From assembly GCA_049414405.1 (NCBI GenBank), contig JBMSAQ010000026.1:4293-36292 (forward strand): 32,000 nt of DNA, in the 5' to 3' direction. The translations under genes and the position numbers were made by a program. The notes under the pieces were generated by a model that worked only from the letters and a program-made list of their open reading frames with translations, was not told the origin of the DNA and made no database searches. Source of the DNA: Candidatus Nanopusillus sp. (GTDB taxonomy: Archaea > Nanobdellota > Nanobdellia > Nanobdellales > Nanobdellaceae). Within the stretch, counting starts at the first letter, position 1, and each line of letters opens with the position of its first letter. Positions 2,260 to 28,834 of this stretch are shown here, piece by piece.

Positions 2260-2527
2260 CAATTATTTTATTATATTCTTTATCAAAACCATTTAACCTA
2301 TCTAAAGCCCTCTTTATTGCATCTATTAATATTTCTCTTGGTTTTCTTTTTCCATTGGTTCTTATATATAAGTAAATATCTTTTATTAGAGGATGATTTT
2401 CTTTCCATGCGGCAATTATTACATCTGGATCTTTATCCAATTCTTCTTTTAATAACATAGACATAGTTGCTTTATCATTTTCAAATATTATTTCCATTTC
2501 TGTTTCACTTTCCTTATTTACTTTCAT
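2246..2527 (-). CDS. rpoL: DNA-directed RNA polymerase subunit L (Rpo11)
   Basis: 93 aa. MEIIFEND...LLKEELDKDPDVIIAAWKENHPLIKDIYLYIRTNGKRKPREILIDAIKRALDRL follows the Rpo11/RpoL pattern (HPL..., I.T.G..P.E.L..A). Internal Met-11 (2497) could be the true start. Overlaps the downstream gene by 14 nt. Confidence 0.65.
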   Translation of the reverse strand: MKVNKESETEMEIIFENDKATMSMLLKEELDKDPDVIIAAWKENHPLIKDIYLYIRTNGKRKPREILIDAIKRALDRLNGFDKEYNKIIDEIR

Positions 2528-2550
2528 TCCTATTATATTATATAAATATT

Positions 2551-4203
2551 TTATATAACTTTATCTCTTATCTTTTTTATCTCAAAATTAAATAAATTAA
2601 TACTCAAAACCCCTCCATTTTTTATATTTCTCAAAAATAAAATACCTGGTTCTGGTTTATGACCCAATTCTTTCTGATATGGGGTTATATCCTGGAAGGT
2701 GGATGAATTAATTAAATCTATCCCTCTATATTCGCTATAAGATGCTCTATGTATATGGCCGGTATGAAACAAATCTGGTACAATCTCTATTACAGATGGG
2801 TCGTCATTTATATATGGAACGTACGGATTTGATCCATGAGATGGAAATATTAACCTAAACATTAACATAAATTTCATTAATTCTCCGGGATTTTCATATC
2901 CCCCTCTCTCTCTTAAAAAAGAAATGTTTGATACTAACCAATCTAAAACGTATCCATGGTATAATAACCCAATAATCGAATTATGTATTTTTACATATGA
3001 TGGATTTGACAAATAATGTATATTTTTCATTGAATAGGATTCTCTTAATAAAGATCTTGGCAATTCTGGTTGTGGTTCTGCCAATCTTGGTATGTCGTGA
3101 TTTCCTGGTATAATAATTGTCTTTATACTTTCCGGTATTTTTAATATATAATCTTCAAAACTTTTATATTGGTCCTCATATGTTTTTAATACCAATTCTT
3201 CTTTTTGATCTGGATAAACACCAACCCCATCCACAACATCACCAACAATTATTACATAACCTATTTTTCTAGTAATTTCATTTATTTTTTCATTTTCTGT
3301 TTTTCCATTTACAAATTGTAAAAATCTATCAAATAAATTGTAAAATGTATGTTTATTTCCTATTTGCCAATCACCAGTAAATAGTATATATACATCATCT
3401 TCCCCAAATGTTTTTGATTTTTTTATTGGTACATTTGGTAATATCACATTATTTACAAAAAACATGTTGTTTTTATATATACCAACTAAACCAATAACAG
3501 AATCTGACGGTATATCTTTGACTATTTTAAAATCTATGTTTTCGTTATCTTTGCTTATAAAAGCTTTTATAATATTGTTTTCATCTTCTATAACAAGAAT
3601 TATTCCTTTTTCGGTTATTTTCTTATCATAAACCAATCCTGCAATTGCAACTTCTTTGTTTTCTGGTATTTTATTTAACGGATATAGTTCTCTCATTTCT
3701 GAATGATCTCTTAGTATTTTTTTTATCTTATTTAATCTTTGCTTATAATATGATATCCAGGATATAATGTCTGGTTTATTTTTTTGTATTTCAAATTTCT
3801 TTAGAATATTTATTTCTTTTGCTTCTTTCATTTCCTTTACAGATAGTTCTATTTCTTCTCCAACGTGTTTCTTTGTACTTTCTATAAGAATTACATTAGT
3901 ACTTTCTTTTTCTATATTTTGTTTATTTTCATTTATATTAAAAAAATCTTTTATATTTATAATGTTTCGTTTTTTATTGATGTTCTTTTCACTTTTTTCA
4001 ATGTTTTTATTATCATTACTAACATTTTTTTCAAGTATTTTATTAATAAAATCTTCATCTATCTTATTTACATTGTTTTTTACTGCTTCTTTAAATATAA
4101 TGTCTAAATATTCATCTTTTAAATTGTTTAAAAGATCATATGCTCTTTTTTCAATAAATATATTATTTTCCCATAGCAGTTTTATTAGATCTTCTTTATT
4201 CAT
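2551..4203 (-). CDS. polB: DNA polymerase II (PolD) small subunit DP1
   Basis: Metallophosphoesterase motifs GDWQIGNKH, GDVVDGVGVYPDQ, PGNHD and GHIH in the C-terminal half, preceded by a Lys/Asn-rich linker. ATGA overlap with the upstream Orc1/Cdc6 gene. The Pyrococcus-type cdc6-polD arrangement is established knowledge. Confidence 0.85.
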   Translation of the reverse strand: MNKEDLIKLLWENNIFIEKRAYDLLNNLKDEYLDIIFKEAVKNNVNKIDEDFINKILEKNVSNDNKNIEKSEKNINKKRNIINIKDFFNINENKQNIEKESTNVILIESTKKHVGEEIELSVKEMKEAKEINILKKFEIQKNKPDIISWISYYKQRLNKIKKILRDHSEMRELYPLNKIPENKEVAIAGLVYDKKITEKGIILVIEDENNIIKAFISKDNENIDFKIVKDIPSDSVIGLVGIYKNNMFFVNNVILPNVPIKKSKTFGEDDVYILFTGDWQIGNKHTFYNLFDRFLQFVNGKTENEKINEITRKIGYVIIVGDVVDGVGVYPDQKEELVLKTYEDQYKSFEDYILKIPESIKTIIIPGNHDIPRLAEPQPELPRSLLRESYSMKNIHYLSNPSYVKIHNSIIGLLYHGYVLDWLVSNISFLRERGGYENPGELMKFMLMFRLIFPSHGSNPYVPYINDDPSVIEIVPDLFHTGHIHRASYSEYRGIDLINSSTFQDITPYQKELGHKPEPGILFLRNIKNGGVLSINLFNFEIKKIRDKVI

Positions 4204-5432
4204 ATATCTTTTTTTATTTTTTCATATATTTTTTTAAGATTATCAACATCTGATATAATCTTTAAAACCTTGTTTACTCCGTTTTTTCCATTAGATATTA
4301 TTTTTGATTCTATTAATTCTCCAAATATACTTTCTATTTTCTTTAGATTTTTATATACTGCTGTTTTATCTAAAACAGATATTCCAAAACTATTAGATAA
4401 ATTTACGTATTCTTCGTATAAATTGTTAAATGTTACAAAATCTTCTTTTTTTATTTGTTCTTTTATTAAGGCTAGTAAAATTATTTTTTGTGTTTTGTTT
4501 AAAGTGTTTACTATAGACTCTAATATATTTAAATCAACACTTGAAAAAGCTTCATTTATGTCGTCTTTATCTATTTTTTCCTTGTTTTTATTATATGAAA
4601 TAATTGCTGATAATCTTAGCACATTTATTGCAATTCTTGCGTCTCCAAAAAATTCTTTAGAAACCTTTGCAGAAATATAATTTATATCTTCCTCTGATAT
4701 TGAACCTGGTTTTAGAGCTTTTATAGCTCTGTCTTTTAGAATTTCTCTCAATTCATAATAATTGTATGGAAGAAATTTTACTTGAATTATCGATGAAAAT
4801 GACGATTTTATTCTTTGATCCAATTGAGATATAAAAGATGGGGAATTTGAAATGAGTATTATCCTTATTCTACTTAAAAAGTTTATATCGTAATTTCTTA
4901 ATAGCAAATACAATATTTCTGTATTTTCCAACTTTCTAAATATACTATCTACTTCATCTAATATTATTATTAGCTTATAATCATTATTGATTATAAATTT
5001 ATATATATTTTCATATATATCATTCTTTCTAACTCCGCTTTTTATATTTGTATTTGTTAGTTCTTCATATATTTTTTTAAATATATAATAATCTACTTCG
5101 TCCGACAGTATTTGTTTGCAATTTATATATGCAACTCTTACTTTTAGCTTATTTTTTGCCGAATAAAATGATATACCTTTGCTTAAATACCTTGCCATTA
5201 AAGTTTTCCCAGTACCGGTAGTTCCGTATAAAAATAAGTTACTTCCTGTATTTCTATTTAAAAACAAGTTTATGTTTGATAATATGATTTCTTTTTCTTT
5301 ATCTCTAAATTTGATTTCGTATGGAATGAAATCTTCTTCAAAATATCTTCCATCTACAATAAGGCTTTTATTTTTATTTGATATTTTTTCAAAATCTGAT
5401 AAAAAATAGTCTATTATAGAATTTGTCATCAT
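4200..5432 (-). CDS. cdc6: Orc1/Cdc6 replication initiator (AAA+)
   Basis: Walker A LYGTTGTGKTLMA, Walker B IIILDEVDS, sensor region and a C-terminal winged-helix-like tail; 410 aa, typical size. Confidence 0.9.
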   Translation of the reverse strand: MMTNSIIDYFLSDFEKISNKNKSLIVDGRYFEEDFIPYEIKFRDKEKEIILSNINLFLNRNTGSNLFLYGTTGTGKTLMARYLSKGISFYSAKNKLKVRVAYINCKQILSDEVDYYIFKKIYEELTNTNIKSGVRKNDIYENIYKFIINNDYKLIIILDEVDSIFRKLENTEILYLLLRNYDINFLSRIRIILISNSPSFISQLDQRIKSSFSSIIQVKFLPYNYYELREILKDRAIKALKPGSISEEDINYISAKVSKEFFGDARIAINVLRLSAIISYNKNKEKIDKDDINEAFSSVDLNILESIVNTLNKTQKIILLALIKEQIKKEDFVTFNNLYEEYVNLSNSFGISVLDKTAVYKNLKKIESIFGELIESKIISNGKNGVNKVLKIISDVDNLKKIYEKIKKDI

Positions 5433-5761
5433 AATATTTTATATTATAAAAAATTTTATAAAATGTCTTTGCATTCACTTTAAAAAAATAGAAATAAACC
5501 TTCTTATTCCTTAAAATAATAAATTTTTTGTGATTTTAAAAAATTTGCCCTAAAATTTTTTCCATAGATAGTTTTTCCCTCTAAAGATATCTATAATTTT
5601 TCTGTTTAAAAATGTTGTTTATCAAAAAAATTTATAAACAATATTTATAAAATTTTTGATACACATACATCAAAATGTAAGCTAATTATATTATATTTGC
5701 CAGATTTTTATATACTACTAACTAGTAGTTAATTATTTTATTGGTATCTTCTTAAAAATAA
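5433..5761. other. Candidate replication origin region (also holds the cdc6 promoter)
   Basis: Longest non-coding gap in the window (329 bp; most others are under 150 bp), directly upstream of orc1/cdc6. Three copies of the palindromic octamer TTTATAAA (5455, 5631, 5644) and an inverted repeat ACTACTA-ac-TAGTAGT (5714-5729). No canonical ORB consensus recognised. Confidence 0.3.
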
Positions 5762-10154: not shown

Positions 10155-12719
10155 TTATACTATCTTATTTAGTTCTTTTAAACTTCTTTTATCCAAATCT
10201 TTTAATATTATCTGATACAAATTATCATTTTCATCAACAAACAAAATTTTATCATCAAAATTAAATATGTTTTTTGGAGAAATTACCTTTATTTCTAATT
10301 CTTTATTATTTATAAAACTATTTAAAGTTATTGTTTCCCCTTCAACTTCTATTTTCTTTATTTTCTCTATTTTATATATTATAGAATTATATCTAATTGC
10401 ATTTTCTAGTATTTTCCTTGAATTTTCATCTAAAATTGTATAATCTTCTAATAAAAATATTTCATTGAAATTATCATTATAAAATCCTATAAATTTTGGA
10501 TTTGATATTGGAAATAACAATTTAGGCATGATATTTTCATATTTTTTACCGTTATATATAATATTTACTCTACTAGGTCTATCAGTTGATTCTATTTTCA
10601 TATTTTTATCCTTTATTATATTTAAATTAAATATTTGGGGTTTTTCATTAACTTTTTCAATTCTTTCTATATTTTCTATTTGATTCTTAAACAATTCATA
10701 GAATTTTCCCTTTTTCTTAATTAATTCGTTAGGTTTTCCCTCTTCTACAATTCTTCCATCTTCTATAACAATAACCCTATCCATATTTAATATTTCCGAC
10801 AAATTATGCGAAATATATATTAAAGTTTTATCCTTTGAAATATTTAATATAGAAGAAAAAATTTGTTCTCTACTTTTTGAATCAATATTCGATGTTAATT
10901 CATCAAATATAAATATATCGGAATTTCTTATTATATTTCTTGCAATTGCTATTTTTTGTCTTTGTCCTCCAGATAATTTTGTTCCTTCTTCTCCTGCCAG
11001 AGTATCATATGCAAATGGTAATTTAATTATATCATCATGTATATTTACGATCTTACATACTTTAATTATTTCTATCTCATTTATGTTTTGATTTCCATAA
11101 GATATATTATATTTAATAGTATTATCAAAGATTTCTGGATTTTGAGATAAATAAGAAATTTTTTCTCTAAGATATTTTAAATCTATATCTTTTATATTTG
11201 TATTTCCAATTAATATTTCTCCATCGGTTACATCATAAAATCTTAATAATAATTTCGTAATTGTCGTTTTTCCTGCACCATTTTTTCCAACGATAGCAAC
11301 TTTTTCTTTTGGTTTTATTGTAAAAGAAATATTTTTTAATATAGGAAAACCCGGTTCATATCCAAATGTAACATTAACAAATTTTATTTCATCAATAATA
11401 TTGGGTTTTAAAGCGTTTTCTTTATTTAATATTTTTGGTTTATCTTCTAATAATTCTAATATTCTTTCAGCGGAAATTAGAACGTTTGGTATATCTCTAA
11501 AAAACCTTTCGTATGTGATAAGTGGACCATAGATATTCGATGTATAAGTTATAAAAGCAATTAATGTACCCAACATAATCAAATCATTAATTACAAAGAT
11601 TCCACCCATGTACCACAAAAATACAGTAGTCAATTCTAATATAAGAAATGAAAAATCACCTCTCATTGTAATAAGTTTTCCCACTTTAATATCTATTAAA
11701 TACCAAGAGTTTATTATGTTTTTTGTTTTTTCATATTCTTCCTTTTCTTTTGAGAACAGTTTGATACTGTAAAAATTCCTTAGAATATTATTTACTTGAG
11801 TTTCAACATCTACAGACTTTATTCTGGCTTTTTTACTGGCTATTCTAATTTTTCTTTCATAAATTATAAAAATTGTAAAAATAACTGCTGTTGTAATTAT
11901 TACAGGTATTGCTAAAAAAGGCAATAGAAAGAAAAGTATAATAAGACTTCCAATAAGTAATAAAGTATCCATAATTACAATGGGCAATTTTAAAATAAGA
12001 CTATTTATCTCTTCTATATCAGATTGATATCTAACAATTAATCTAGAAGGAGAATATTTTTCTACAAAGGAAACATCGTTAAAAATTATGTGTCCTAATA
12101 ATAGCTCTCTTATTTCTTTTGTAATTTTTGTTTGTATAATATTTGATAAAAAATTTCCTATCAAATATAAAAGCCTATAAGCAACGAATGATATTAACAT
12201 TAAGAAAATTATTGTGATAAATATGTCTAGTGATGGCGTTTCTGATATAAGAACTTTATTTATTAGTAGAGCCGTTAAATAAGGAGGAACCAGGTTTATT
12301 ATAGTACCCACAATAAAGATAATAGTAATTAAAGCAAGTTCTTTCCTATATTTTTTAATAATTTGTATTAAAAACCCACATATTTCTTTCTTTGATCTTT
12401 TCTTTTCTTCTTCCTTTTCAATTATTTCTGTTTTTACTTTTAAATTAAATTCATCTACAATTTTTTGTATGTTATCTGCCTTTTTCTTTGTAAAATATGC
12501 AACCTCAAAAACATTTTTATCTTTATCTATTGCAATTAATTTACATATACTTATTCCATATTCTATATCTAACTTTTCTACATTATCAATTTCTAATATT
12601 TTATTATTATTATTATCATATACAGAAATTTTATCATCTAAAATTTCAATAGTTTCTTCAGTAAAATTGAGATTTCTATCAAGATTGGTTTTAAATATCG
12701 CTTTAAAATGATAAGTCAT
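10155..12719 (-). CDS. ABC exporter, fused permease-ATPase (type I exporter fold) with extra N-terminal (~110 aa) and C-terminal (~170 aa) domains
   Basis: Multiple hydrophobic helices in the TM region before the NBD. NBD motifs: Walker A VGKNGAGKTT, signature LSGGQRQ, Walker B IFIFDE, H-loop ISHN. The extensions lie outside the canonical TMD-NBD core. Confidence 0.85.
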   Translation of the reverse strand: MTYHFKAIFKTNLDRNLNFTEETIEILDDKISVYDNNNNKILEIDNVEKLDIEYGISICKLIAIDKDKNVFEVAYFTKKKADNIQKIVDEFNLKVKTEIIEKEEEKKRSKKEICGFLIQIIKKYRKELALITIIFIVGTIINLVPPYLTALLINKVLISETPSLDIFITIIFLMLISFVAYRLLYLIGNFLSNIIQTKITKEIRELLLGHIIFNDVSFVEKYSPSRLIVRYQSDIEEINSLILKLPIVIMDTLLLIGSLIILFFLLPFLAIPVIITTAVIFTIFIIYERKIRIASKKARIKSVDVETQVNNILRNFYSIKLFSKEKEEYEKTKNIINSWYLIDIKVGKLITMRGDFSFLILELTTVFLWYMGGIFVINDLIMLGTLIAFITYTSNIYGPLITYERFFRDIPNVLISAERILELLEDKPKILNKENALKPNIIDEIKFVNVTFGYEPGFPILKNISFTIKPKEKVAIVGKNGAGKTTITKLLLRFYDVTDGEILIGNTNIKDIDLKYLREKISYLSQNPEIFDNTIKYNISYGNQNINEIEIIKVCKIVNIHDDIIKLPFAYDTLAGEEGTKLSGGQRQKIAIARNIIRNSDIFIFDELTSNIDSKSREQIFSSILNISKDKTLIYISHNLSEILNMDRVIVIEDGRIVEEGKPNELIKKKGKFYELFKNQIENIERIEKVNEKPQIFNLNIIKDKNMKIESTDRPSRVNIIYNGKKYENIMPKLLFPISNPKFIGFYNDNFNEIFLLEDYTILDENSRKILENAIRYNSIIYKIEKIKKIEVEGETITLNSFINNKELEIKVISPKNIFNFDDKILFVDENDNLYQIILKDLDKRSLKELNKIV

Positions 12720-14328: not shown

Positions 14329-14465
14329 ATAATAATAATAGTAATAATAATATTTATAAACATTATTTCTTTAAAATTCTAGTTTGTCTCCGAGTAGTTA
14401 CTTATATGAATGCAAACCACCAGGTTTTATTAAAAATATTGAAAAAATGTAGTTTAAACAAAATC

Positions 14466-14549
14466 CGCCGCGGGTGGGATTTGAACCCACGCCCCCTTTC
14501 GGGGATATGGTCTCCAGCCATACCCCTTGGTCCGCTCGGGCACCGCGGC
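14466..14549 (-). tRNA. tRNA-Ser (GGA), class II with long variable arm
   Basis: Manual cloverleaf, 84 nt: GCCGCGG-UG-CCC-GAGCGGACCAA-GGG-G-UAUGG-CUGGAGA-CCAUA-UCCCCGAAAGGGGGC-GUGGG-UUCAAAU-CCCAC-CCGCGGC-G. No intron, no encoded CCA. Confidence 0.9.
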
Positions 14550-14554
14550 ATAAA

Positions 14555-14649: not shown

Positions 14650-15582
14650 ATGTTAACAAGAAATCTATTGGAAAAGATAAATCAAAAGATAAATCAAATA
14701 AAAAGAGGTGAAGAAAATTATGAGGAAGAAAAAATTAATATTGAAAAGTTAGATTTAGATAATTTTGAAGTAAAAGAAAAGAAAAAATATGGATTTATAG
14801 ATTCTTCTCATGTAAATGGGATTGTTGGACCTTATAGTTATATATATTCTAGAGCAGTAATTGTTTCTGATGACATATATGAAATTATAGATGATATAGA
14901 ATTTTTTGAAACATCTTTTATAAGATCAATGAATAATGAAAATTTTGATATTCAAGACATTTCAGAATTATTATCGAAAAATTTAGAATATAAGTTGGCG
15001 AGAAAATATTCTGATAGGTATATATTTATAGATGGATCAATAATATCGGATTCTATATTATATTCAAAATTTTTTGATAATTTTTATGATGAGAATATTG
15101 AAAATAGGAGAAAAGAATTCTTAGAGAATTTCGAATATTTAATGAATGATGGAAATCTATCGGCAGTCGCAAAAAGAATATTAAATTTGGATATAATAAA
15201 AACTGGCAGATCGGATTTATTAACATTGATGAAAGTTTTTCCATCAGAAATATTTTATACAAATATTAAGGAAAAACAATTAAAAGAATTTTTAGGTTTT
15301 AAAATTCCAAACTGTTCATTTTGTAATAAAAAAATATATATGATATATTTCAGGGCTAGATATAATGATCATATATATAGATTGGAAGGAATGGAGAAAA
15401 TTGGAAAAGAAAAGTTCAAAGAAATAATAAAAGAAGTTGTTTATGATCAAAAATCTTATCCTAAATGGTTAAAGTTAGCTCACAACTTATGTAAAATAAC
15501 AAATAAGGAAAAATTAAGATTAGAAAGTTATATTAAGAAAAATTTGGGATTTGAAAAAACTATTGGTTGGGAAACTCATTAG
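14650..15582 (+). CDS. nurA: NurA-family nuclease
   Basis: Three blocks typical of NurA as I recall it from Sulfolobus: KYGFIDSSHV...YIYSRAVIV, DRYIFIDGSIISD, and C-terminal SYPKWLKLAHNLCKI (YP..L..AH). 310 aa. Confidence 0.6.
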   Translation: MLTRNLLEKINQKINQIKRGEENYEEEKINIEKLDLDNFEVKEKKKYGFIDSSHVNGIVGPYSYIYSRAVIVSDDIYEIIDDIEFFETSFIRSMNNENFDIQDISELLSKNLEYKLARKYSDRYIFIDGSIISDSILYSKFFDNFYDENIENRRKEFLENFEYLMNDGNLSAVAKRILNLDIIKTGRSDLLTLMKVFPSEIFYTNIKEKQLKEFLGFKIPNCSFCNKKIYMIYFRARYNDHIYRLEGMEKIGKEKFKEIIKEVVYDQKSYPKWLKLAHNLCKITNKEKLRLESYIKKNLGFEKTIGWETH

Positions 15583-15655
15583 GGTCCGGGGCGGGATTTG
15601 AACCCGCGATCTTCGGGTCCACAGCCCGACGCCTTACCACTAGGCTACCCGGACC
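15583..15655 (-). tRNA. tRNA-His (GUG) with genome-encoded G-1
   Basis: Manual cloverleaf, 73 nt: G(-1)-GUCCGGG-UA-GCCU-AGUGGUA-AGGC-G-UCGGG-CUGUGGA-CCCGA-AGAUC-GCGGG-UUCAAAU-CCCGC-CCCGGAC-C. The 3' end abuts the NurA stop codon. Confidence 0.9.
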
Positions 15656-15684: not shown

Positions 15685-16851
15685 TTAACCAATATAAATT
15701 AAAGGCATTACACCATTTGGAGGATATGCTCTAGCTACTACCCATTGTACATATTGAAGTGATGTATAGCCACTGGTTCCTGCACTTATTTGTAATGTAC
15801 CATATTGGAAAGGATTATAGTTTAAATTATAATATGTATAATTTCCATAATTTGGATTATATGATAAATGATACATGTTTAATAAAGTTAGTGGAACCCA
15901 TACTTGATTAGAATTATAAATATAGTATCCTGCTTGTGCATATGTCAAATTAACTATTAAATATGAATAAATAGTTCCTGCATTTGGTGGGAAATATGTA
16001 TAATTCAAATATTGATAAGTTACTGCGGATTTTAACATTGTTGCTCTGCTTAGGGGTGGATAAGTACCGCCCCAATACTGAAATTGTACATATGTAGATA
16101 AATTAGATGTTGTTGTAGCACCACCACATGTAGTATAACTTCCTCCTGTTATATTTGTCCCACCGCAGCCACTAGAAACTATGGGAGATGCAATACCACC
16201 AGCAAAAAATTGTTGATTTGTATTTCCAAATAATGCTATTACATTTGCATCTGCACTAAGTGTATGATACCACACTTCCTCAACAATTAAAGGTATTAAA
16301 GGAATATTCCAATTGTTTGGGGGTAAAATATAAGTACCCTGATAATAATTATTTGTCATTTGAATACCATTTGGAGTTGCTGTAGGGGAAAATGATCCAT
16401 AAAAAATATATCCGATCCATCCATCCATTGTATTATTAAAATATCCATATACTATAAATACATATTTTCCATTATCATATTGTCTAGAAGGATCTACATT
16501 TGGAGAAACACCTACATATGGATAATATTGTTGATAATAATTTGAAGAACTATTTCCTATATACATGTATATAGTTACATTACTATTTGCAGGAATACCA
16601 CTATCTAATTTTACCCACCAAATTTTACAATATATACTTCCATTTATTAATTGACCTAAATACCATGAATATATATCTGGAGTACTATTACAGGTTGTAG
16701 TAAAATATACATTAGATCCATTACTATTAATTAAATTAAATAAAGTTACATTGTTTACATAAGCAAAATGGGGACCTATATTTATACTTCCATTACATAT
16801 TGCTATTTGTTGTTGGAATGGTGCAGGTGTTGGGATATTTTGAGTATTGTA
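15685..16851. repeat. Dispersed direct repeat, copy A (partner 27240..28346)
   Basis: By-eye alignment of 16561-16820 against 28056-28315 gives 20 mismatches in 260 nt. Collinear similarity runs from the stop codon to the YNTQNIP junction. Confidence 0.85.
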
Positions 16852-17382
16852 TAATATTAAAGTTAAATAAGATGGTTGGCAGATAAAGGTACTTGAAGTA
16901 GAATCTGATATATTAAAGACAATTGGTGGTTGAAAATAGTTAATTAAAGGATTTGAAATATATTCTATATTAAATGATCCAATTATATTATTAGCTATCC
17001 CAACTTCTAATTTATAATTTCCATTTTGATTTGGAGGGGTTTGGGATAAATTTGCAACAACAATTAATAGACCATTATCATATGGATTTACAATCGATCC
17101 ATTCGAATTATAAGGATAAACTTTTACTAATCTGCCATTTAGAATTGCAAATACTTGAGAATAATTAACAGGTTCTGAAGGTTTTACATATGCATATAAA
17201 GTATCATTTGCTATAAAGTAATCAAGTAATTGGAAATTTAACTTTATAGATTTTGAAATTTCCTGCCCAGTTGGATTTATTATATTTAAATTGGGAGAAA
17301 TTATATTATATATTGTTATAGTAACAAAAGCGCCAATCACTAATAATAGTAATGCTGTAACTATCTCAGATTGTAATCTCAT
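15685..17382 (-). CDS. Large surface (glyco)protein, paralog A: ArlF/G-like N-terminal helix plus beta region fused to a ~390-aa Tyr/Trp/Asn-rich domain
   Basis: N-terminus MRLQSEIVTALLLLVIGAFVTITIY. About 18 N-x-S/T sequons by hand count. From residue 178 (YNTQNIPTPAPFQQQIAICNG...) to the C-terminus it is homologous to 27240..28631. Third gene of a tightly packed operon. Confidence 0.7.
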   Translation of the reverse strand: MRLQSEIVTALLLLVIGAFVTITIYNIISPNLNIINPTGQEISKSIKLNFQLLDYFIANDTLYAYVKPSEPVNYSQVFAILNGRLVKVYPYNSNGSIVNPYDNGLLIVVANLSQTPPNQNGNYKLEVGIANNIIGSFNIEYISNPLINYFQPPIVFNISDSTSSTFICQPSYLTLILYNTQNIPTPAPFQQQIAICNGSINIGPHFAYVNNVTLFNLINSNGSNVYFTTTCNSTPDIYSWYLGQLINGSIYCKIWWVKLDSGIPANSNVTIYMYIGNSSSNYYQQYYPYVGVSPNVDPSRQYDNGKYVFIVYGYFNNTMDGWIGYIFYGSFSPTATPNGIQMTNNYYQGTYILPPNNWNIPLIPLIVEEVWYHTLSADANVIALFGNTNQQFFAGGIASPIVSSGCGGTNITGGSYTTCGGATTTSNLSTYVQFQYWGGTYPPLSRATMLKSAVTYQYLNYTYFPPNAGTIYSYLIVNLTYAQAGYYIYNSNQVWVPLTLLNMYHLSYNPNYGNYTYYNLNYNPFQYGTLQISAGTSGYTSLQYVQWVVARAYPPNGVMPLIYIG

Positions 17383-17392
17383 ATTATATTAA

Positions 17393-17839
17393 TTAACTAG
17401 CATATATTAAAGTTTGAAACTTAACCCCATAACAAGATACCAGTATTATATAATTCCATGAATTGTTTACTAAATAACTATTATTAAAATATATTGTTGC
17501 ATTTTCACCTGGTAAAAATAGATTTGATGGATACAAATAATTTATAGAATAATTAAAAGGGGAAAAATAACCATTAACATATAATTGAAAACATGACAGA
17601 TCTAATGCTTTATTTCCGTTATTATAAATAATTAAATATGGATTTGAATAGTTTGTTTGATTATTTAAAAATTTTATATTTTCTCCGACAATATTTCTTA
17701 TTTGGTTAGCTACTGAATTTGCAGTATAATAAAAATTCCTATAATAATTATCTAAAATTAAATATAAAACAATTGCAGAAATAATAAAAATGACAAATCC
17801 AACGATTGCTCCAACAATTGATCCTAAATTGGATTTCAT
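17393..17839 (-). CDS. ArlF/ArlG (FlaF/FlaG)-like membrane-anchored protein
   Basis: MKSNLGSIVGAIVGFVIFIISAIVLYLIL helix, then a beta-rich region with YLIIYNNGNKALDLSCFQLYVNGYF (the N.G...l....l.v.G pattern of FlaF/FlaG). The first ATG (17839) forms an ATGA overlap with the upstream stop. The ORF track extends to a GTG at 17851. Confidence 0.55.
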   Translation of the reverse strand: MKSNLGSIVGAIVGFVIFIISAIVLYLILDNYYRNFYYTANSVANQIRNIVGENIKFLNNQTNYSNPYLIIYNNGNKALDLSCFQLYVNGYFSPFNYSINYLYPSNLFLPGENATIYFNNSYLVNNSWNYIILVSCYGVKFQTLIYAS

Positions 17840-18315
17840 ACTACTGTACACGTACTCGCGGTTCTATTAACATATATCAAATTCTGTGTATATGCTCCAG
17901 TAGATGCCACAATCTTTACTTGATAAAAGTTTGTTGTTACAGAAATATTTGTAACAATTACAATTGTGTCATAAGGCCCCCAAGCCGGAGTGCCAGTATA
18001 ACTGTTTGCAATATAAATTCTTGTATTATTTATTAATACCCCATTAATAAACAATAATGTTAAATTTTGATTTAATACTATATTCCCTCTATTTGTTACA
18101 TAGAAATATAATAAATTTGTTGTATTGTTATATGCACAAGAATCTAATGTAATGTAAGTATTTAATTGATTTTGTAATGATTGGGAGTTTGCAATTGCAG
18201 CATTACTTATTTCATTTAAACTATTATATGCAGTAGAAATAAATATATAAGCAGCAATGCCAGCAACTATAAATAATATGATTTCTACAAGAATTGTTCC
18301 AAATTGGTTTTTCAT
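17836..18315 (-). CDS. ArlF/ArlG (FlaF/FlaG)-like membrane-anchored protein
   Basis: MKNQFGTILVEIILFIVAGIAAYIFISTAY (pilin/archaellin-like N-terminus, Glu five residues after the Gly), then LLYFYVTNRGNIVLNQNLTLLFINGVLINNT. 159 aa, the size of FlaF/FlaG. Several N-x-S/T sequons. Confidence 0.55.
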   Translation of the reverse strand: MKNQFGTILVEIILFIVAGIAAYIFISTAYNSLNEISNAAIANSQSLQNQLNTYITLDSCAYNNTTNLLYFYVTNRGNIVLNQNLTLLFINGVLINNTRIYIANSYTGTPAWGPYDTIVIVTNISVTTNFYQVKIVASTGAYTQNLIYVNRTASTCTVV

Positions 18316-22314: not shown

Positions 22315-25300
22315 ATGAGTGATGAGAGATTTATAAAAGAGGTTTTTCGTGGAAAAAAGGAAGAAGAAATTGTTTTAGGACAAAAAAATCATAAAATAAA
22401 AAAAGTTATTAAAAGAGACGGAAGAATTGTGGACTTTGACCCTGAAAGAATAAAATATGCTATAGAAAGAGCAATGAAAGCTGTTGGTGCTTATGATAAA
22501 GAAAAATTAGAAAAAATTGTTGATTATATAATAAAAGTATTAGAGGAAAAATATGATGATATAAAATATCCAACTGTTGAAGAAATTCAAGATATTGTCG
22601 AATTATCTTTATTAAAATTTGATTTATATGATGTTGCCAAAGCATATATTTCCTATAGAAAAGAAAAGGAAAAAATAAGGGAAGAAAAGAAGAATTTACT
22701 GGGAAAATTCTATGAAGAAGAAGTTGCAAAAAGATTTTCTGTTAATTCAATTAGATTAATGGTAAATAGATATTTATTAAGGAATGAGAATAAAGAATTA
22801 ATAGAGGGTCCAAAACAAATGTTTGAAAGAGTTGCTGCATTAATCATAATACCAGATTTATTATATGATGAAAGAATATATGATAAGGAAGGAAAGCAAA
22901 GAATACATCCAAAGGAAGAATTTGACTTCGTAAAAAATGAAAATAAATATGGATTACCAATAAAAGATCCTAAATTTAAATGGAATAGATACCATTTAGA
23001 AAGAATGAAATATTTGTATGATTATTTAAATGAAAGAGGTCATATGAAAGTTTCATGGTCAGAATTTATAAAAATGTTAGAAAATGGAGAATTTGACAAA
23101 TATTACGAAAATTTCTACCAATATTATGATTTAATGGCAAGTAAAAGATTTATGCCAAATTCTCCAACATTATTTAACGCGGGTGCTGTCTTAGGACAGT
23201 TATCTGCATGTTTTGTATTGGATATTGATGACGATATGGAATCAATAATGAAATCTGCAACAGAAGCAGCTTTAATATTTAAATCAGGGGGCGGAATTGG
23301 AATAAATTATTCAAAATTAAGACCCGAGGGCGATGTTGTTGCATCTACTGGTGGTATTGCTTCAGGTCCAGTTTCATTTATGAAAATCATAGACACAATT
23401 ACAGATGTGGTAAAACAAGGGGGAAAGAGAAGGGGAGCAAACATGGGTATTTTAGAATCCTGGCATCCGGAAATATTTAAATTTATTCATTTAAAGGAAA
23501 AAGAAGGTGTATTAGAAAACTTTAATATATCTATAATGTTTGAGCCAACATTTTGGGAATATTTTGAAAATAAAAAAGAATATCCTTTAATTAATCCAAG
23601 ATTATTAAGGAGATATAATTTACCTTTTCCAGGAGATCCAAATTTTGATATAAATAAAGTACCAAAGGAAGCAATTGTTGGATATGTAAATCCTGAAAGA
23701 ATACTACAAGAAGCATCATATGTTGCATGGGAAAAAGGAGATCCCGGATGCTTGTTTATGGATAATATAAATAGAAGAAATGTTCAATATAAATATAGAG
23801 GACCAATTAGAGCTACTAATCCATGTGTAACTGGAGATACTAGAATTTTAACTCCGTATGGTCTTTTGAGGGCCGAAACCCTACTTTATTTAAACAATGA
23901 AAATGGTAGCGATATCAACAATATAGAGCTTTTAGTAGATGGAGAAGGTGAAATTTTGTATACAACAGTTCATGGAAAAACATTGAGTGTAAGTTCTCCA
24001 ATATTGGTTGATGCAAAAGTTTGGAAAGTTGGATTTAAACCAACCGTTAAATTAATTTTAGAAAATGGAATGGAGATTGAAGTAACTGAAGATCATAAAA
24101 TACTCACAAAAGATGGCTGGATAGAAGCAAAATATGCTGAAGGAAAGGAAGTAAAGATAGCAAGAATTGATATTGATAAGTTAGAAAACTATGGATTAAA
24201 AGAAATTGATGGAATAAAATTAGATAGAGAATTGGGATTTTTATTAGGATGGTTGGTTGGAGACGGATATGTTGGGGAAAAAGTGTTCTTCTATTTTAAT
24301 ACTAAAACTGAAAAAGAAGTTTCCGAATATGTAAAAAAATTGCTTGAAAAGAAATTTGGAGTAAATGTTAGTAGGTTCGAAAGAAATAATGAGATATGGA
24401 TTTATGTTGGTAAGAAGGAAGTTGTTGAAATTTTCAAAAAACTAATGAGAAGGAAAACAAGCTTGCCAGAAATTGTTTTCCTAGCAAATTCGGAATTTGT
24501 TAAAGGATTTTTGAGTGGGTTGTTTTCAGCGGACGGATATTTCGATAAAGACAGAGCAATAAGATTAATATCATCTAATAAAGATTTGTTGAAGGAAACC
24601 CAACTTTTACTAACTTTATTCGGTATATTTTCAAAGATTTATGAGAGACCATATAAGAGAAAGTTTGAGTATATTACTGTAAATGGTGAAAGAAAAGAAT
24701 ATGAAACTAGAGGTTATTTTGAGCTTATAATCAAAAACTATAGTAGGAAAATTTTTGAAGAAAAGATAAAATTGATAGATTATAAAAACAAAAAGCTTCC
24801 GGATGGACTAAAGAAAACTAAAATAGATGATAATTATGTTAAAATTTTAAGAGTAGAATATGTTGGTGAAAAATTGGTTTATGATTTTAGTGTTCCGGGA
24901 TTTAATAGATATATTTCTAACGGAATAATAAGTCACAATTGTGGAGAACAACCTTTATATCCTTATGAATCTTGTAATTTGGGATCAATTAATCTATATG
25001 CTTTGGTTGAATTTAAAGATGGAAAGGTTGAATTTAATTGGAATAAATATATTGAAACAATAAAATGGGCTTATAAATTTTTAGATAATGTAATAGATGT
25101 AAATAAATATCCAATAAAGGAAATTGAAGAAGCTTCGAAAGCAGTAAGAAGAATTGGACTTGGATTTATGGGATTGGCGGATATGTTATATGCATTGGGA
25201 ATTCCATATACATCTGAAGAAGGATATAAATTACTAATGAAAATAACAGAATATTTAACATATTATTCAATGTTAGAATCTGTTGAAAGGGCAAAAACAA

Positions 25301-26217
25301 GGGGTAAATTCGATAAATATGATCAAACAACATATAAAGATGGTAAATTACCTGTAGAAGGATATTATCATAGAGAGTTATGGACATTAGATTGGGAATA
25401 TTTGAAAGAACAAATAATGAAATATGGAATAAGAAATATTGAAGTTACTTCAATTGCCCCTACAGGTTCTATATCAATGTTAGCGGATACATCTTCAGGT
25501 ATTGAACCACAATATTCTTTAGTATATGAAAAAAGAGTAACTGCTGGTATATATTTTTATGTAGATCCAGAATTAGAAAGGCAATTGAGAGAAAGAGGAC
25601 TATATAATAATGATATATTAAAGAAAATATCTGATAATGGTGGAAGTTTATTGGGAATAAAAGAGATCCCAGATGATTTGAAAGCAATATTCTTAACAGC
25701 ATTAGATATGCCATGGTGGGATCATATAAGAGCACAGGCAGTTGCTCAAATATGGATAACTACATCAATATCAAAGACAATAAATATGCCAAATTGGGTT
25801 CAGCCAGATGACGTATATTATTCATACTTATTAGCATATAAGATGGGATGTAAAGGAATTACAATATATAGAGATGGATCAAAATCTGTACAAGTATATG
25901 TAGCTCCTGCTGAAGCAAGTAAGGCAAGATTTGCAGATTACTTTAGACTAATTAGAGAAGGAAAAATAAATAATAAAACAGTTGAAATATTAAAACAATA
26001 TGGAATAAAGTTACCAAACTGGTATTATGAATTAAATAACAACGTTGAGATACCAAAAGTAAAATTGAATGTAAACATTAATAATACATTAAGGGTTGAA
26101 GAAAATGGAAATAATAAAATTGAGAAATGTCCTGTATGTGGATCTATGAGGTTAAAACATCAAGCAGGTTGTATTACATGTATAGATTGTGGATGGTCGG
26201 AATGTATAATTGCTTAA
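22315..26217 (+). CDS. nrdJ: Ribonucleotide reductase, class II (B12-dependent) type, with N-terminal ATP-cone, one intein and a C-terminal Cys4 zinc ribbon
   Basis: ATP-cone [35 protein letters not shown]. Active-site TNP-[intein][19 protein letters not shown]. [23 protein letters not shown]-terminal CPVCGS...CITCIDCG. The class II call rests on the archaeal-type layout and Zn-ribbon tail (inference). Confidence 0.9.
23824..24939 (+). mobile_element. Intein (372 aa) with LAGLIDADG homing-endonuclease domain, inserted in the RNR active-site NPCGE motif
   Basis: Starts with Cys ([13 protein letters not shown], block A). Block [14 protein letters not shown]. Two LAGLIDADG motifs, [14 protein letters not shown] and [12 protein letters not shown]. 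Blocks [12 protein letters not shown]...NGIISHN, followed by the +1 Cys (CGEQ). In frame: 1116 nt. Confidence 0.9.
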
Positions 26218-26243: not shown

Positions 26244-26315
26244 TGGACCCGCCGGGATTTGAACCCGGGATCTCCGGCTTGCAAGGCCGGCATCCTACGA
26301 CTAGACTACGGGCCC
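26244..26315 (-). tRNA. tRNA-Ala (UGC)
   Basis: Manual cloverleaf, 72 nt: GGGCCCG-UA-GUCU-AGUCGUA-GGAU-G-CCGGC-CUUGCAA-GCCGG-AGAUC-CCGGG-UUCAAAU-CCCGG-CGGGUCC-A. The G3:U70 identity pair is present. Confidence 0.9.
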
Positions 26316-26502: not shown

Positions 26503-27096
26503 CTATTTATTTAACTTATTTTCCTTTAATTTATTTAAAAATTCTGCAAATTTTTTAGCAGATTCTCCCAATAATCCTTCTTCATTATTTATTATTTCTA
26601 CTATTGTACCATGTTCAAACATAAATATTGTAGTGAAGTATATTGTTAAATTTTGTTGAATTTCAATTCTTTTTAAATTTTCTATATCTCTTCCTCTTAT
26701 TTGTATATCTCTTAATCTTCTAACAAAAATTTTATCAGGATCTGATATCATTACGATAATTCCATCCGGTCTTAAAATTTCTGAATATTCTCTTAACATA
26801 CCCGGAATATATCCTTCATATGATTCTATTACTAAATGAGTATCTAATATTATGTCATTTTCTTTTTCCATTTCTTTTATTCTTTTAATAGCTTCTCTTT
26901 GTAGTTCTTTTTGTTGTTCAAAAGTTAATTTCTTCCTTATTTCATCTCTATTATTTATATTATATTTTTCTTTTGCCAATTCAAACATAATATCTCCTGT
27001 ATTTACAACTTTAAATTCATATTTTAAGTATTTTTTAGCTTCATTAATCACCGAAGTTTTTCCAACACCAGGTACCCCAACAACTAATATTATCAT
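26503..27096 (-). CDS. adkA: Adenylate kinase, archaeal type
   Basis: MIILVVGVPGVGKTSV P-loop, ~195-aa length and overall pattern (VNTGDIMFE...RDEIRKL...LDTHLVIE...GYIPG) of archaeal AdkA. Confidence 0.85.
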   Translation of the reverse strand: MIILVVGVPGVGKTSVINEAKKYLKYEFKVVNTGDIMFELAKEKYNINNRDEIRKKLTFEQQKELQREAIKRIKEMEKENDIILDTHLVIESYEGYIPGMLREYSEILRPDGIIVMISDPDKIFVRRLRDIQIRGRDIENLKRIEIQQNLTIYFTTIFMFEHGTIVEIINNEEGLLGESAKKFAEFLNKLKENKLNK

Positions 27097-27239: not shown

Positions 27240-28346
27240 CTAATCAATGTAAATTGAAGGCATTGCACCATTTGGAGGATATGCCCTAGCAATTACCCAT
27301 TGTACGTATTGATATGAATAAGCACCACTAGTTCCAGCACTTATTTGTAATGTACCATATTGGAATGGATTATAATTTAAATCAGACCATACATATCCAT
27401 CCCAATTTATCTTATATGTATTTAATAATGTTAAAGGTATCCATGCATAACCATAATAACTATATATATAATATCCTGCTTCTGCATATGTTGAATTAAC
27501 TATTAAATATGAATAAACAGTTCTTCCATATGGTGAGAAATACACATAATATAAATATTGGTTAGTTACTGCAGATTTTAACATAGCCGCTTTACTATCG
27601 GGTGGATCAGATCCATAATAATACTCAAATTGCACAAATGTAGATAAATTGGGTGCGGGTGTAGCACCACCATAAGTAGATCCAATCGTACCAGCTAAAA
27701 GTTGCTGGCTCATATTTCCAAACAATGCTATTACATTTGCATCCGCGCCCTTAGTATGATACCAAGCTTCTTCAACAATTAAAGGTATTAAAGGTATATT
27801 CCAATTATTTGGAGGTAAAATATATCTACCTTGATAAGTTTGATCGGCTAACATTTCAATACCATACGGAGTTGCTGTAGGAGACCCTAATCCCGCATAA
27901 ACATATCCAGTCCATCCATCAAATGTATTGTTAAAATATCCATATGCTATGAATACATATTTTCCATTATCATATTGTCTAGATGGAAATACATTTGGAG
28001 AAGCACCAACATATGGATAATATTGTTGATAAAAATTTGAAGAATTATCCCCTATATACATGTATATAGTTACATTACTATTTGCAGGAATACCATTATC
28101 TAATTTTATCCACCAAATCTTACAATATGTACTTCTATTTACTAATTGACCTAAATACCATGAATATATGTCTGGAGTACTATTACAGGTTGTAGTAAAA
28201 TATACATTAGACCCATTTCTATTAATTAAATTAAATAATGTTGGATTATTTACATAAGCAAAATTAGGACCAATATTTATTGTTCCGTTACATATTGCTA
28301 TTTGTTGTTGGAATGGGGATGGTGCAGGAATATTTTGGGTATTATA
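27240..28346. repeat. Dispersed direct repeat, copy B (partner 15685..16851)
   Basis: Same as copy A. Same orientation, about 11.5 kb apart. About 60 nt shorter, mainly because copy A carries a Gly/Thr/Cys-rich insertion. Confidence 0.85.
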
Positions 28347-28631
28347 TATTGTAATTGGAATATATTGATTATATCCTATATTAATATAACTGGAATAATT
28401 GGAATAATTATTTAAATAATTGTTAGAAGTATTTTGATAATTATTAGCACTTGTAGTATTAGAACTTATAATAGTATGTGTTGTAAGATTTTGATAGTTA
28501 TTAGAACTGGTAATATTTGTTGAACTGTTTGTTAAATTTGGCTTATTAAAAAACATATTATATCCAAAATATATACCAACTATTGCAACTATAATTATTA
28601 AAATTATTATTAATAAAGCATTAGATTTCAT
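27240..28631 (-). CDS. Large surface (glyco)protein, paralog B: signal-anchor plus Asn/Ser/Thr/Tyr stalk plus the domain shared with 15685..17382
   Basis: MKSNALLIIILIIIVAIVGIYFGY anchor. Residues ~30-90 are almost only N/S/T/Y/Q. From YNTQNIPAPSPFQQQIAICNG (residue 96) to ...ARAYPPNGAMPSIYID it is collinear with paralog A. About 17 sequons by hand count. Confidence 0.7.
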   Translation of the reverse strand: MKSNALLIIILIIIVAIVGIYFGYNMFFNKPNLTNSSTNITSSNNYQNLTTHTIISSNTTSANNYQNTSNNYLNNYSNYSSYINIGYNQYIPITIYNTQNIPAPSPFQQQIAICNGTINIGPNFAYVNNPTLFNLINRNGSNVYFTTTCNSTPDIYSWYLGQLVNRSTYCKIWWIKLDNGIPANSNVTIYMYIGDNSSNFYQQYYPYVGASPNVFPSRQYDNGKYVFIAYGYFNNTFDGWTGYVYAGLGSPTATPYGIEMLADQTYQGRYILPPNNWNIPLIPLIVEEAWYHTKGADANVIALFGNMSQQLLAGTIGSTYGGATPAPNLSTFVQFEYYYGSDPPDSKAAMLKSAVTNQYLYYVYFSPYGRTVYSYLIVNSTYAEAGYYIYSYYGYAWIPLTLLNTYKINWDGYVWSDLNYNPFQYGTLQISAGTSGAYSYQYVQWVIARAYPPNGAMPSIYID

Positions 28632-28750: not shown

Positions 28751-28834
28751 TGCGGCGGAGGGGATTTGAACCCCTGACGGATCTACTCCACTGGGTCTTG
28801 AGCCCAGCCCCTTTGGCCTCTCGGGCACCGCCGC
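28751..28834 (-). tRNA. tRNA-Leu (CAA), class II
   Basis: Manual cloverleaf, 84 nt: GCGGCGG-UG-CCC-GAGAGGCCAAA-GGG-G-CUGGG-CUCAAGA-CCCAG-UGGAGUAGAUCCGUC-AGGGG-UUCAAAU-CCCCU-CCGCCGC-A. Confidence 0.9.

Follow-up and report, generated by a model that had tools for sequence, protein, structure and literature searches.

The window analyzed in this work, a stretch of 32,000 nucleotides from contig JBMSAQ010000026.1 of Candidatus Nanopusillus sp., contains two genes on the minus strand, copy A (15685–17382, 565 aa) and copy B (27240–28631, 463 aa), whose 3′ parts form a dispersed same-strand repeat of 1.1 kb that encodes a shared C-terminal body. We propose, with a probability of about 0.65, that these genes represent a family of surface lectin-like proteins of Nanopusillaceae, in which the lectin-like half of the body is a recombining cassette and the proteins act as adhesins for host glycans. 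Judging from the sequences, this is a lineage-specific and unnamed multigene family of surface proteins that has been missed by sequence-profile annotation. Cassette-like recombination within the family is supported by sequence comparisons between strains and loci, whereas the host-adhesin role of these candidate lectin-like proteins is inferred from predicted structures and genomic context.

The repeat was aligned by blastn at 15686–16853 versus 27241–28348 (E = 0, 1177 columns with gaps, 8 gap openings), and a repeat scan resolves it into four collinear blocks with 79–88% identity (15686–16656 versus 27241–28151). It ends at the stop codons of both genes, while the 5′ halves of the genes and the flanks have no A–B similarity by blastn, and the window contains no third copy. 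These boundaries, the shared C-terminus, and the unrelated flanks are as claimed in a preliminary description of this DNA (blastn, BLASTP), and its by-eye mismatch count for one sampled region is right (16561–16820 versus 28056–28315; 19 mismatches in 260 nt, 92.7% identity). However, the sample is the best-conserved part of the repeat, and the identity of about 90% given for the whole 1.1 kb is too high: the actual value is 78.4% with gaps and 82.6% over 372 aligned codons (75.5% at the amino acid level; BLASTP yields 70% for A172–564 versus B90–462, E = 0). Over the same codons, the number of synonymous substitutions per site (dS) is 0.40 and that of nonsynonymous substitutions (dN) is 0.15 (dN/dS 0.38), with dS rising from 0.29 over codons 1–140 to 0.47 over the remainder. 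Synonymous sites are hence unsaturated, saturation being a sign that the preliminary description had named as telling against its proposal. The longest identical run is 45 nt, and several other family members are as near to A or B as A and B are to each other. Mutagenesis by a diversity-generating retroelement was considered and rejected: mismatches are spread over all base classes of copy A (67 A, 36 C, 28 G, 63 T; 101 transitions and 93 transversions) without adenine bias, and no reverse transcriptase was found among the Pfam-scanned open reading frames (ORFs), including those of all neighbors.

A search of 5.8 billion proteins (E ≤ 1e-3) identified 333 protein relatives; at the 50% identity level, there are 658 representatives. 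All taxon-named proteins among the 120 best matches belong to Nanopusillus, Nanobsidianus, or Nanoarchaeota/Nanopusillaceae, and nearly all family members are annotated as “hypothetical protein.” The nearest named outsiders come from Micrarchaeia, Conexivisphaera, Nitrososphaerales, and Marsarchaeota, with E-values from approximately 1e-20 to 1e-39; among 20 clusters of distant homologs whose taxonomy was looked up, most carried no taxon and five were placed, including one from Nanopusillus sp. In the literature searched, we found neither a prior description of the family in Nanopusillus nor a paper on an archaeal legume-lectin domain.

The first segment of the body, S1 (aa 172–311 in copy A, 16450–16869; 27945–28364 in copy B), is a divergent DUF2341 sandwich and the best-conserved part of the repeat (dS 0.29, dN 0.08 between A and B, with dS of approximately 0.20 in the S1 core). 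In copy A, DUF2341 (PF10102) scores 13.8 bits versus the gathering score of 23.4 (E 0.085, aa 254–280), and copy B has no match. The assignment is nevertheless secure by transitivity, because DUF2341 matches are found in five of 60 close homologs (best E 2e-7) and in distant full-body homologs at the position equivalent to S1, some of them above the gathering score (53.7, 28.4, 25.8, and 23.7 bits); one Conexivisphaera homolog carries DUF2341 as its UniRef name. Both copies contain a perfect 18-nt palindrome, CTATATACATGTATATAG (16557–16574 and 28052–28069), within the most strongly conserved stretch of the repeat. The palindrome codes for (T)IYMYIG, a conserved motif of DUF2341, and in a genome this rich in AT it probably arose by coincidence from the coding sequence.

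The remaining segments of the body, S2+S3 (aa 312–565 of copy A with the stop codon, 15685–16449; 27240–27944 in copy B), are predicted to form an L-type (legume/ERGIC-53-like) lectin fold, that is, a jelly roll with hypervariable loops. In a Foldseek search, both AlphaFold2 (AF2) models (m73f7f743c500 for copy A and m78a768ad6cb7 for copy B; predicted local distance difference test score, pLDDT, 72 and 69, respectively, i.e., of moderate confidence) matched L-type lectins at E from 5e-8 to 4e-6, with probability 1.0 and target template modeling (TM) scores of 0.55–0.66. Among the targets are legume lectins, ERGIC-53, VIP36, and Emp46p, as well as 7elv, a legume-lectin domain from M. jannaschii, with E-values of 5e-8 to 2e-7 and target TM scores of 0.6–0.66; at the sequence level, neither a single-protein nor a profile search of the PDB yielded anything at E ≤ 10. 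The body in the model of copy A comprises a sandwich (A172–275), a low-confidence connector (A282–309), and a large sandwich (A308–553). The DUF2341/LamG-like identity suggested in the preliminary description is thus upheld both by the DUF2341 matches of homologs and by the structural matches, L-type lectins having a concanavalin-A-like fold.

Within the family, variation is concentrated in discrete loop blocks between invariant strands (aa 322–331, 342–351, 372–381, 392–421, 432–451, 462–471, and 532–541). The extra Gly/Thr/Cys-rich loop noticed earlier in copy A is indeed an 18-residue insertion (A401–418, including Cys406; 16129–16182, minus strand) in the loop that is richest in indels across the family, a position that is a gap in 49–75% of members. 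The tail at the C-terminus, W..(A)RAYPPNG(V/I)MPSIYI(G/S), hardly varies (RAYPPNGVMPLIYIG at the end of copy A; minus-strand positions 15685–15750 and 27240–27305 in the window). It is kept even where unrelated sequence replaces the whole lectin cassette, and the AF2 confidence at residues 553–565 is low. Possible roles of the tail are to anchor recombination, to act as a signal for sorting or anchoring of the protein, or to provide a strand that binds a partner.

Both copies apparently encode extracellular proteins rich in glycosylation sites. Each has 18 N-x-S/T sequons (3.2–3.9 per 100 aa versus 0.3–1.1 in cytoplasmic neighbors) and 5.5–6.9% of charged residues, a composition that fits exposed proteins of a thermoacidophile; together with the N-terminal hydrophobic helix, these features agree with the surface location proposed previously. 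The N module of copy A (aa 1–171, 16870–17382) contains a hydrophobic helix (residues 2–31), a seven-stranded sandwich (50–140), and a low-confidence linker (143–166), and hence has a pilin- or archaellin-like layout of a long helix followed by an Ig-like sandwich, whereas in copy B (aa 1–89, 28365–28631; body aa 90–463 with the stop codon, 27240–28364) the helix (residues 3–28) is followed by a disordered, low-complexity Asn/Ser/Thr-rich linker (pLDDT <50) with eight sequons and no sandwich. Except for the helix, the two modules are unrelated, as had been described. Neither copy matches the Pilin_N or Arch_flagellin hidden Markov models (HMMs); among 60 homologs, Pilin_N is found in seven and Arch_flagellin in four, and the locus-B alleles of other strains start with M..SISPI(I/V)A, i.e., canonical pilin N-termini.

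At least six architectures occur in the family, including Pilin_N N-termini, a 302-aa N module, a signal peptide followed by the body and a tail of 370–450 aa, and tandem bodies (N modules were grouped by single-linkage clustering with strict coverage). One member, P0076, combining a signal peptide, the body, and a 450-aa tail, is located on metagenomic stretch L094 approximately 2 kb from a T2SSF/T2SSE (TadC/ATPase) pair with two small ORFs (2455–5602), and this is the only direct link of the family to a pilus assembly module that was seen.

A metagenome scan identified 223 related stretches, of which 80 were fetched; L-numbers refer to these stretches. In flank searches, the gene order of locus A (GatB, FlaF/G-like 1, FlaF/G-like 2, copy A, tRNA-His, NurA) was observed in at least 12 loci, including one in a divergent Nanopusillaceae metagenome-assembled genome (MAG). 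Locus B, i.e., a body gene upstream of an AAA_17 kinase gene, was found in 13 other loci, with an N module that varies between strains (window type, Pilin_N type, and short type). Recurrent groups of downstream flanks show that at least eight locus types carry a family gene across the sampled population. As many strains share the synteny of both loci, the A–B duplication is old. Local rearrangements were observed as well: at locus A of L021 (4063–6666), a tandem duplication places both FlaF/G-like genes and a partial N module of A before a second pair of FlaF/G-like genes with a complete copy A, while L026 (431–2791 and 5482–6660), L001, L037, and L049 contain two or three bodies within a few kilobases. 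At locus B of L026, two tandem bodies reside within a single 851-aa protein (P0002).

Comparison of positional orthologs identifies the body as an island of divergence. Relative to L054 and L063, the closest relatives of the window at locus A, nucleotide identity is 91–97% in GatB, the FlaF/G-like genes, NurA, and most of the N module (in the latter, 93–96%, decreasing to approximately 78% in the last 150 nt). In the body, it falls to 63–74%, with approximately 20% in the window of the indel-rich loop, and then, starting with the final codons of copy A, which encode the tail, it is back at about 92–93% through tRNA-His into NurA. The respective dS values are 0.18–0.29 in the flanks and N module (0.18–0.26 in the module; dN 0.02–0.05), 0.35 in S1, and 0.65–0.70 in the lectin half, where dN is 0.22–0.35 and dN/dS reaches 0.5 in S2. 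Since the three-fold excess of dS is not explained by selection on amino acids, the lectin half would have an older, different ancestry at the same position. Locus B behaves similarly: compared with L067, the flanks are 93–97% identical, the N module 89–98%, and the body 52–83%. The earlier picture of a conserved body with swapped N modules is therefore inverted, as between strains the N modules are conserved and variability at each locus is highest in the body.

The lectin half also has a history that differs from both its surroundings and S1. For 108 bodies, pairwise distances in S1 correlate poorly with those in S2 or S3 (r = 0.14–0.15), in contrast to S2 versus S3 (r = 0.83), and the class of the N module has no predictive value for the similarity of bodies. 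Mean body identity is 0.70 for A–A, 0.69 for B–B, and 0.68 for A–B pairs; in neighbor-joining (NJ) trees, which are star-like with long tips, the loci intermix. In the S2+S3 tree, a locus-A clade of L054, L063, L078, and L084 is recovered in 200/200 bootstraps, and window copy A joins L054 and L063 in 0/200, even though these two are the nearest relatives of the window by flank sequence. By protein identity, S2+S3 of window copy A is closer to L015, a locus-B gene (0.74), and to its own copy B (0.70) than to L054 and L063 (0.62–0.63). A pairwise homoplasy index (PHI)-type test on biallelic informative sites is significant both on all sites (p < 0.0005) and on third positions (p = 0.004).

The most direct evidence of exchange comes from an alternative class of locus-A genes, represented by P0032 (L092), P0068 (the N. 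acidilobi MAG, L093), and Nst1_194. These genes keep the N module, S1, and the tail (in the form W..RAYPPNG(I/V)MP.IYI), and their middle part is shorter, with no detectable similarity to the lectin half. Compared with L092, the window is 91–97% identical up to the N module and 81–92% in S1, drops to 23–46%, the level of chance, from approximately 16480 to 15750, and is again 92% identical at the tail and tRNA-His, the step back occurring within about 100 nt at the stop codon. In L060 (465–2582), also at locus A, the first stop codon is lost, and a lectin body, a second S1, an alternative cassette, and the tail follow in one frame, with tRNA-His and NurA behind the fused gene as in the window. 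This fusion is a plausible intermediate for switching via unequal recombination between repeated S1 or tail sequences. In spirit, then, the cassette-like diversification suggested in the preliminary description stands, the exchangeable, recombining segment across strains and loci being the lectin half.

Several observations weigh against our proposal of recombining lectin-like surface adhesins. Neither window copy exceeds any threshold in Pfam or NCBIfam, and the lectin-fold match is moderate, with a query TM score of approximately 0.3, a root-mean-square deviation of 5–6 Å, and 8–14% identity. The N-termini of the two copies (MRLQSEIVTALLLL and MKSNALLIIILI) lack the canonical [KR][GA] prepilin cleavage motif used in FlaFind and have no G/A at −1. 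A pilus-locus context of the kind described for DUF2341 adhesins was rejected for A and B, as Pfam scans of their neighbors revealed no pilus or secretion ATPase and no TadC platform gene, although copy A does follow two FlaF/G-like genes; such a context exists for the relative in L094. As for recombination, the NJ trees were built on p-distances; approximately one-half of the site pairs fail the four-gamete test and homoplasy is very high everywhere, so that saturation contributes to it; and none of the inter-locus tracts survives the Bonferroni correction for 325 pairs. Finally, since the metagenomic contigs come from mixed populations, same-locus exchange between strains and exchange between loci are not fully separable.

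Each protein of the family consists of an N-terminal hydrophobic helix, pilin-like in the members with Pilin_N, a variable spacer or module, and a body of approximately 390 aa formed by the divergent DUF2341 beta-sandwich (S1), the predicted L-type-lectin-like jelly roll (S2+S3), and the conserved tail. In the mechanism that we propose, homologous recombination anchored on S1 and on the tail or flank would move lectin cassettes between family members and strains, and the resulting variants may be kept by diversifying selection. Fold and genomic context suggest that the proteins are displayed on the surface, where they would either be part of a structure resembling a type IV pilus or associated with the archaellum, or be held by their helix, and that their variable loops might bind glycans or glycoproteins of the envelope of the crenarchaeal host, thereby setting attachment specificity. 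A stronger form of this proposal, in which at least about eight genes with shared anchors constitute an archaeal adhesin-variation system that exchanges L-type-lectin cassettes, along with a second, unrelated type of cassette, across loci and strains and whose repertoire sets the host range, is put forward tentatively, as a possibility that we would not yet favor.

Among the explanations that dispense with such a system, a recent duplication in this genome, with gene conversion keeping A and B alike and N modules being swapped, was the main one proposed originally. It gains some credit from the 92.7% identity of the central stretch and from the dS of the S1 core, which is as low as the divergence between strains, as well as from the lectin halves of A and B being closer to each other than copy A is to its positional orthologs in L054 and L063. 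The longest concordant A–B run in a GENECONV-style analysis is nominally significant on all sites (p = 0.016) but not on third positions (p = 0.14), a maximum chi-square scan of synonymous differences is not significant (209/500 permutations reach the observed value), and the synonymous contrast of S1 versus S2+S3 has p = 0.078. In S1, window copy B groups with the locus-A genes of the window, L054, and L063 (bootstrap 92–118/200), shares with L054 a long concordant tract (p = 0.0005 on all sites, 0.0025–0.0036 on third positions in two permutation runs), and also shares a nominally significant tract with the locus-A gene of L063. Hence, A-to-B conversion specifically in this genome is only suggested, and the recent duplication is quite unlikely given the recurrence of both loci with their own flanks in many strains and of locus A in the divergent MAG, the whole-repeat identity of 78–83% with dS of 0.40, and the existence of other members equally close to A or B. 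At the opposite extreme, the copies could be old paralogs that diverged independently under purifying selection on strands and positive selection on loops, with the mosaic pattern being noise of saturation and alignment rather than a trace of recombination. Concentration of variation in loop blocks, the star-like trees, the very high homoplasy, and dN/dS of up to 0.5 in S2 are what this scenario would produce; we rate it as slightly less probable still, because positive selection does not triple dS, and the return from 23–46% to 92% identity within about 100 nt of the stop codon, a non-homologous cassette at the same locus, the fused two-cassette gene, the 200/200 bootstrap discordance with the flanks, the PHI-type signal on third positions, and the uncorrelated distances of S1 versus S2/S3 combined with the correlated ones of S2 versus S3 all speak against it. 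The least probable explanation is that the second copy results from a chimeric or collapsed metagenomic contig. Assemblers do seem to break on the family, as six of nine MAG matches are at contig ends and an ENA contig with copy A stops approximately 300 nt short of copy B, and a contig look-up did not return the exact protein of copy B. On the other hand, the copy A protein is identical in two independent assemblies, copy B belongs to a cluster of two sequences located on a contig of 36 kb, in many samples each locus is found again with its own flanks, and, with 17–22% of positions differing, the longest identical run is too short to mislead an assembler.

Other alternatives accept the dynamics or the family but change its role or origin. 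With the same family and dynamics, copy A might be an accessory of the archaellum or pilus base, encoded with ArlF/ArlG-like stator proteins, whose lectin domain binds the glycosylated S-layer of the cell itself, or the family might serve as virus receptors or decoys; variability would then track self-glycan variation or viral pressure rather than host recognition. This reading is unlikely; the archaellum- or pilus-base accessory is our main functional rival, suggested by the ArlF/G-like neighbors of copy A. The first of these, FlaF/FlaG (ArlF/ArlG)-like gene 1 (17836–18315, minus strand, 159 aa), opens a conserved, tight, and strictly syntenic trio that ends with copy A and matches Arch_flagellin in Pfam (1.2e-9) and, below the cut-offs, ArlF (2e-14) and ArlG (2.7e-7) in NCBIfam. 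Gene 2 (17393–17851, minus strand, 148–152 aa) overlaps gene 1, ends 10 nt ahead of copy A, resembles gene 1 (BLASTP 5e-5, hhalign 2.1e-5), and weakly matches ArlF (6e-3); the N module of copy A itself aligns collinearly, but only weakly, with the FlaF/G-like gene upstream of it (hhalign E 1.3e-3, probability 19%). In the crenarchaeal archaellum, ArlF binds the S-layer. Also in favor of such a role, both expression of archaellum proteins and glycosylation have been reported for N. acidilobi itself (PMC4935971). Yet the ArlF/G scores are one-half of the curated cut-off, no ArlH, ArlI, or ArlJ gene is nearby, most family members are situated at unrelated loci with other N modules, and hypervariability between strains is more characteristic of molecules directed at another organism. 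Recent acquisition of the body from a crenarchaeal host lineage (Sulfolobales, Desulfurococcales, or Acidilobales), raised in the preliminary description on the grounds that DUF2341/LamG proteins occur in Sulfolobales, has little else to recommend it than the distant homologs in other thermoacidophilic archaea, including one species of Thermoproteota, Conexivisphaera. It is very improbable, as no crenarchaeal name occurs among the 120 best matches, all named ones being nanoarchaeal, the outsiders are scattered over four lineages at E of 1e-20 to 1e-39, and the family is deeply diversified inside Nanopusillaceae. Foreign composition was likewise rejected, the GC content at third codon positions in the body (0.12–0.14) being that of the genome and its native genes.

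The DNA of the window is chromosomal and belongs to an archaeon of the Nanopusillaceae (Nanoarchaeota). Its GC content is about 25%, and a Pfam scan identified archaeal housekeeping genes for Cdc6, the small subunit of PolD, NurA, GatB, ribosomal proteins, and an intein-containing ribonucleotide reductase. Both repeat copies are surrounded by housekeeping genes, the neighbors of A and B including GatB, NurA, tRNAs, an AAA_17 kinase, and a metalloenzyme. The tRNA-His gene (15582–15654) is situated 31 nt downstream of copy A; in the left flank of locus B, which is conserved, tRNA-Leu (28751–28834) precedes copy B by 120 nt, and the AAA_17 kinase-like gene (26503–27096, minus strand), the conserved marker of this locus, is downstream of copy B. 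These two tRNA genes are among four on the minus strand, the others being tRNA-Ser (14465–14550) and tRNA-Ala (26244–26315), and the short repeats D6 and D7 from the repeat scan reflect tRNA-to-tRNA similarity only. The ribonucleotide reductase large subunit, of class II type (22315–26217, plus strand, 1300 aa), has an intein at approximately aa 543–875 with a LAGLIDADG homing-endonuclease domain (Intein_splicing and LAGLIDADG_3 matches). An 854-aa ORF (10155–12719, minus strand) encodes an ABC transporter (transmembrane and ATPase parts) fused to DUF1854; in the N. acidilobi MAG, the same region (L093, 8865–11425) is called as two genes of 588 and 209 aa. The only secretion-ATPase-like gene of the window (457–2262, minus strand), located 13 kb from copy A, encodes a 601-aa protein with an N-terminal PIN domain and a PilT/T2SSE-like ATPase, and is unlike a pilus assembly ATPase.

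The molecules used by nanoarchaea for host recognition and attachment have been stated to be unknown, and staining with the lectins concanavalin A (ConA) and Dolichos biflorus agglutinin (DBA) has been observed for the Acidilobus host, and with wheat germ agglutinin (WGA) for N. acidilobi (PMC4935971). Based on the ConA and DBA staining, Acidilobus displays mannose/glucose and GalNAc glycans that could be read by a lectin-fold adhesin. “Hypothetical external” proteins of Nanoarchaeota have been reported to contain an excess of non-synonymous single-nucleotide polymorphisms (PMC6142677). If the proposed system is real, no recombination-driven family for host recognition would have been described in archaea before it, and it would supply the determinant of attachment that has been missing for Nanoarchaeota. 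The anonymous polymorphic external proteins would gain a predicted fold, a putative mode of anchoring (the pilin-like helix and FlaF/G-like neighbors), defined loci, and a pattern of diversification. In practical terms, the family breaks MAG assemblies, and its members are missed by sequence-profile annotation.

Paralogous adhesins diversified by inter-locus conversion are known in host-restricted bacteria, e.g., babA/babB/babC of Helicobacter pylori, mgpB/MgPar of Mycoplasma genitalium, and pilE/pilS of Neisseria. The family described here resembles them in the small genome and obligate host association of its carrier, dispersed copies with conserved anchors, a mosaic binding region, and positional orthologs that are no nearer than paralogs. 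In contrast, it is archaeal, and we found neither evidence of clonal switching nor a recombination-promoting element (G-quadruplex or recombinase site). An arrangement of an expression site with silent, promoterless donor cassettes of the pilE/pilS type was rejected: no such cassettes were found, each of the window copies is an intact ORF that has a start codon and encodes an N-terminal helix, and the one partial body copy whose frame was examined, in L060, is part of the in-frame fused gene.

Within archaea, DUF2341 proteins of type IV pilus loci, such as arCOG03508 and others in Methanococci and a gene of the M. maripaludis epd locus, have been proposed to be pilus-tip adhesins by analogy with PilY1 (PMC4858521; PMC10133366). 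Shared with these are the order of DUF2341 followed by a jelly roll, the predicted extracellular location, pilin-like N-termini within the family, and, in L094, the proximity of T2SSE/T2SSF genes. Unlike them, the window copies are outside any pilus locus, have a sub-threshold DUF2341, are small (463–565 aa), and belong to a multi-locus family with a recombining cassette; of relevance here, cognate pilins were not identifiable in nanoarchaea according to Makarova et al. (PMC4858521). A second parallel is provided by DPANN archaea, where LamG-like expansions have been linked to pilus loci, e.g., in ARMAN Mia14 (PMC5498576), and LamG surface proteins have been reported in nanohaloarchaea (PMC7443923). 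The likeness lies in an obligate episymbiont having an expanded set of concanavalin-A-like surface proteins, some of them pilus-linked, that are proposed to mediate host contact, and the nearest named outsiders of our family include “LamG-like jellyroll” proteins of Micrarchaeia. The sequence relation is, however, distant (E 1e-20 to 1e-39), and neither cassette exchange in populations nor the fixed architecture of DUF2341, L-type lectin, and tail was found in the passages of these papers that were consulted. The third parallel, with legume lectins, ERGIC-53/VIP36/Emp46p, and 7elv, concerns the predicted fold of the S2+S3 half; these proteins have no detectable sequence similarity to the window proteins, which carry several long inserted loops. 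Thus, the kind of system is known, both as DUF2341/LamG surface proteins of episymbionts and as recombining adhesin paralogs of host-restricted bacteria, while this particular family is itself unnamed.

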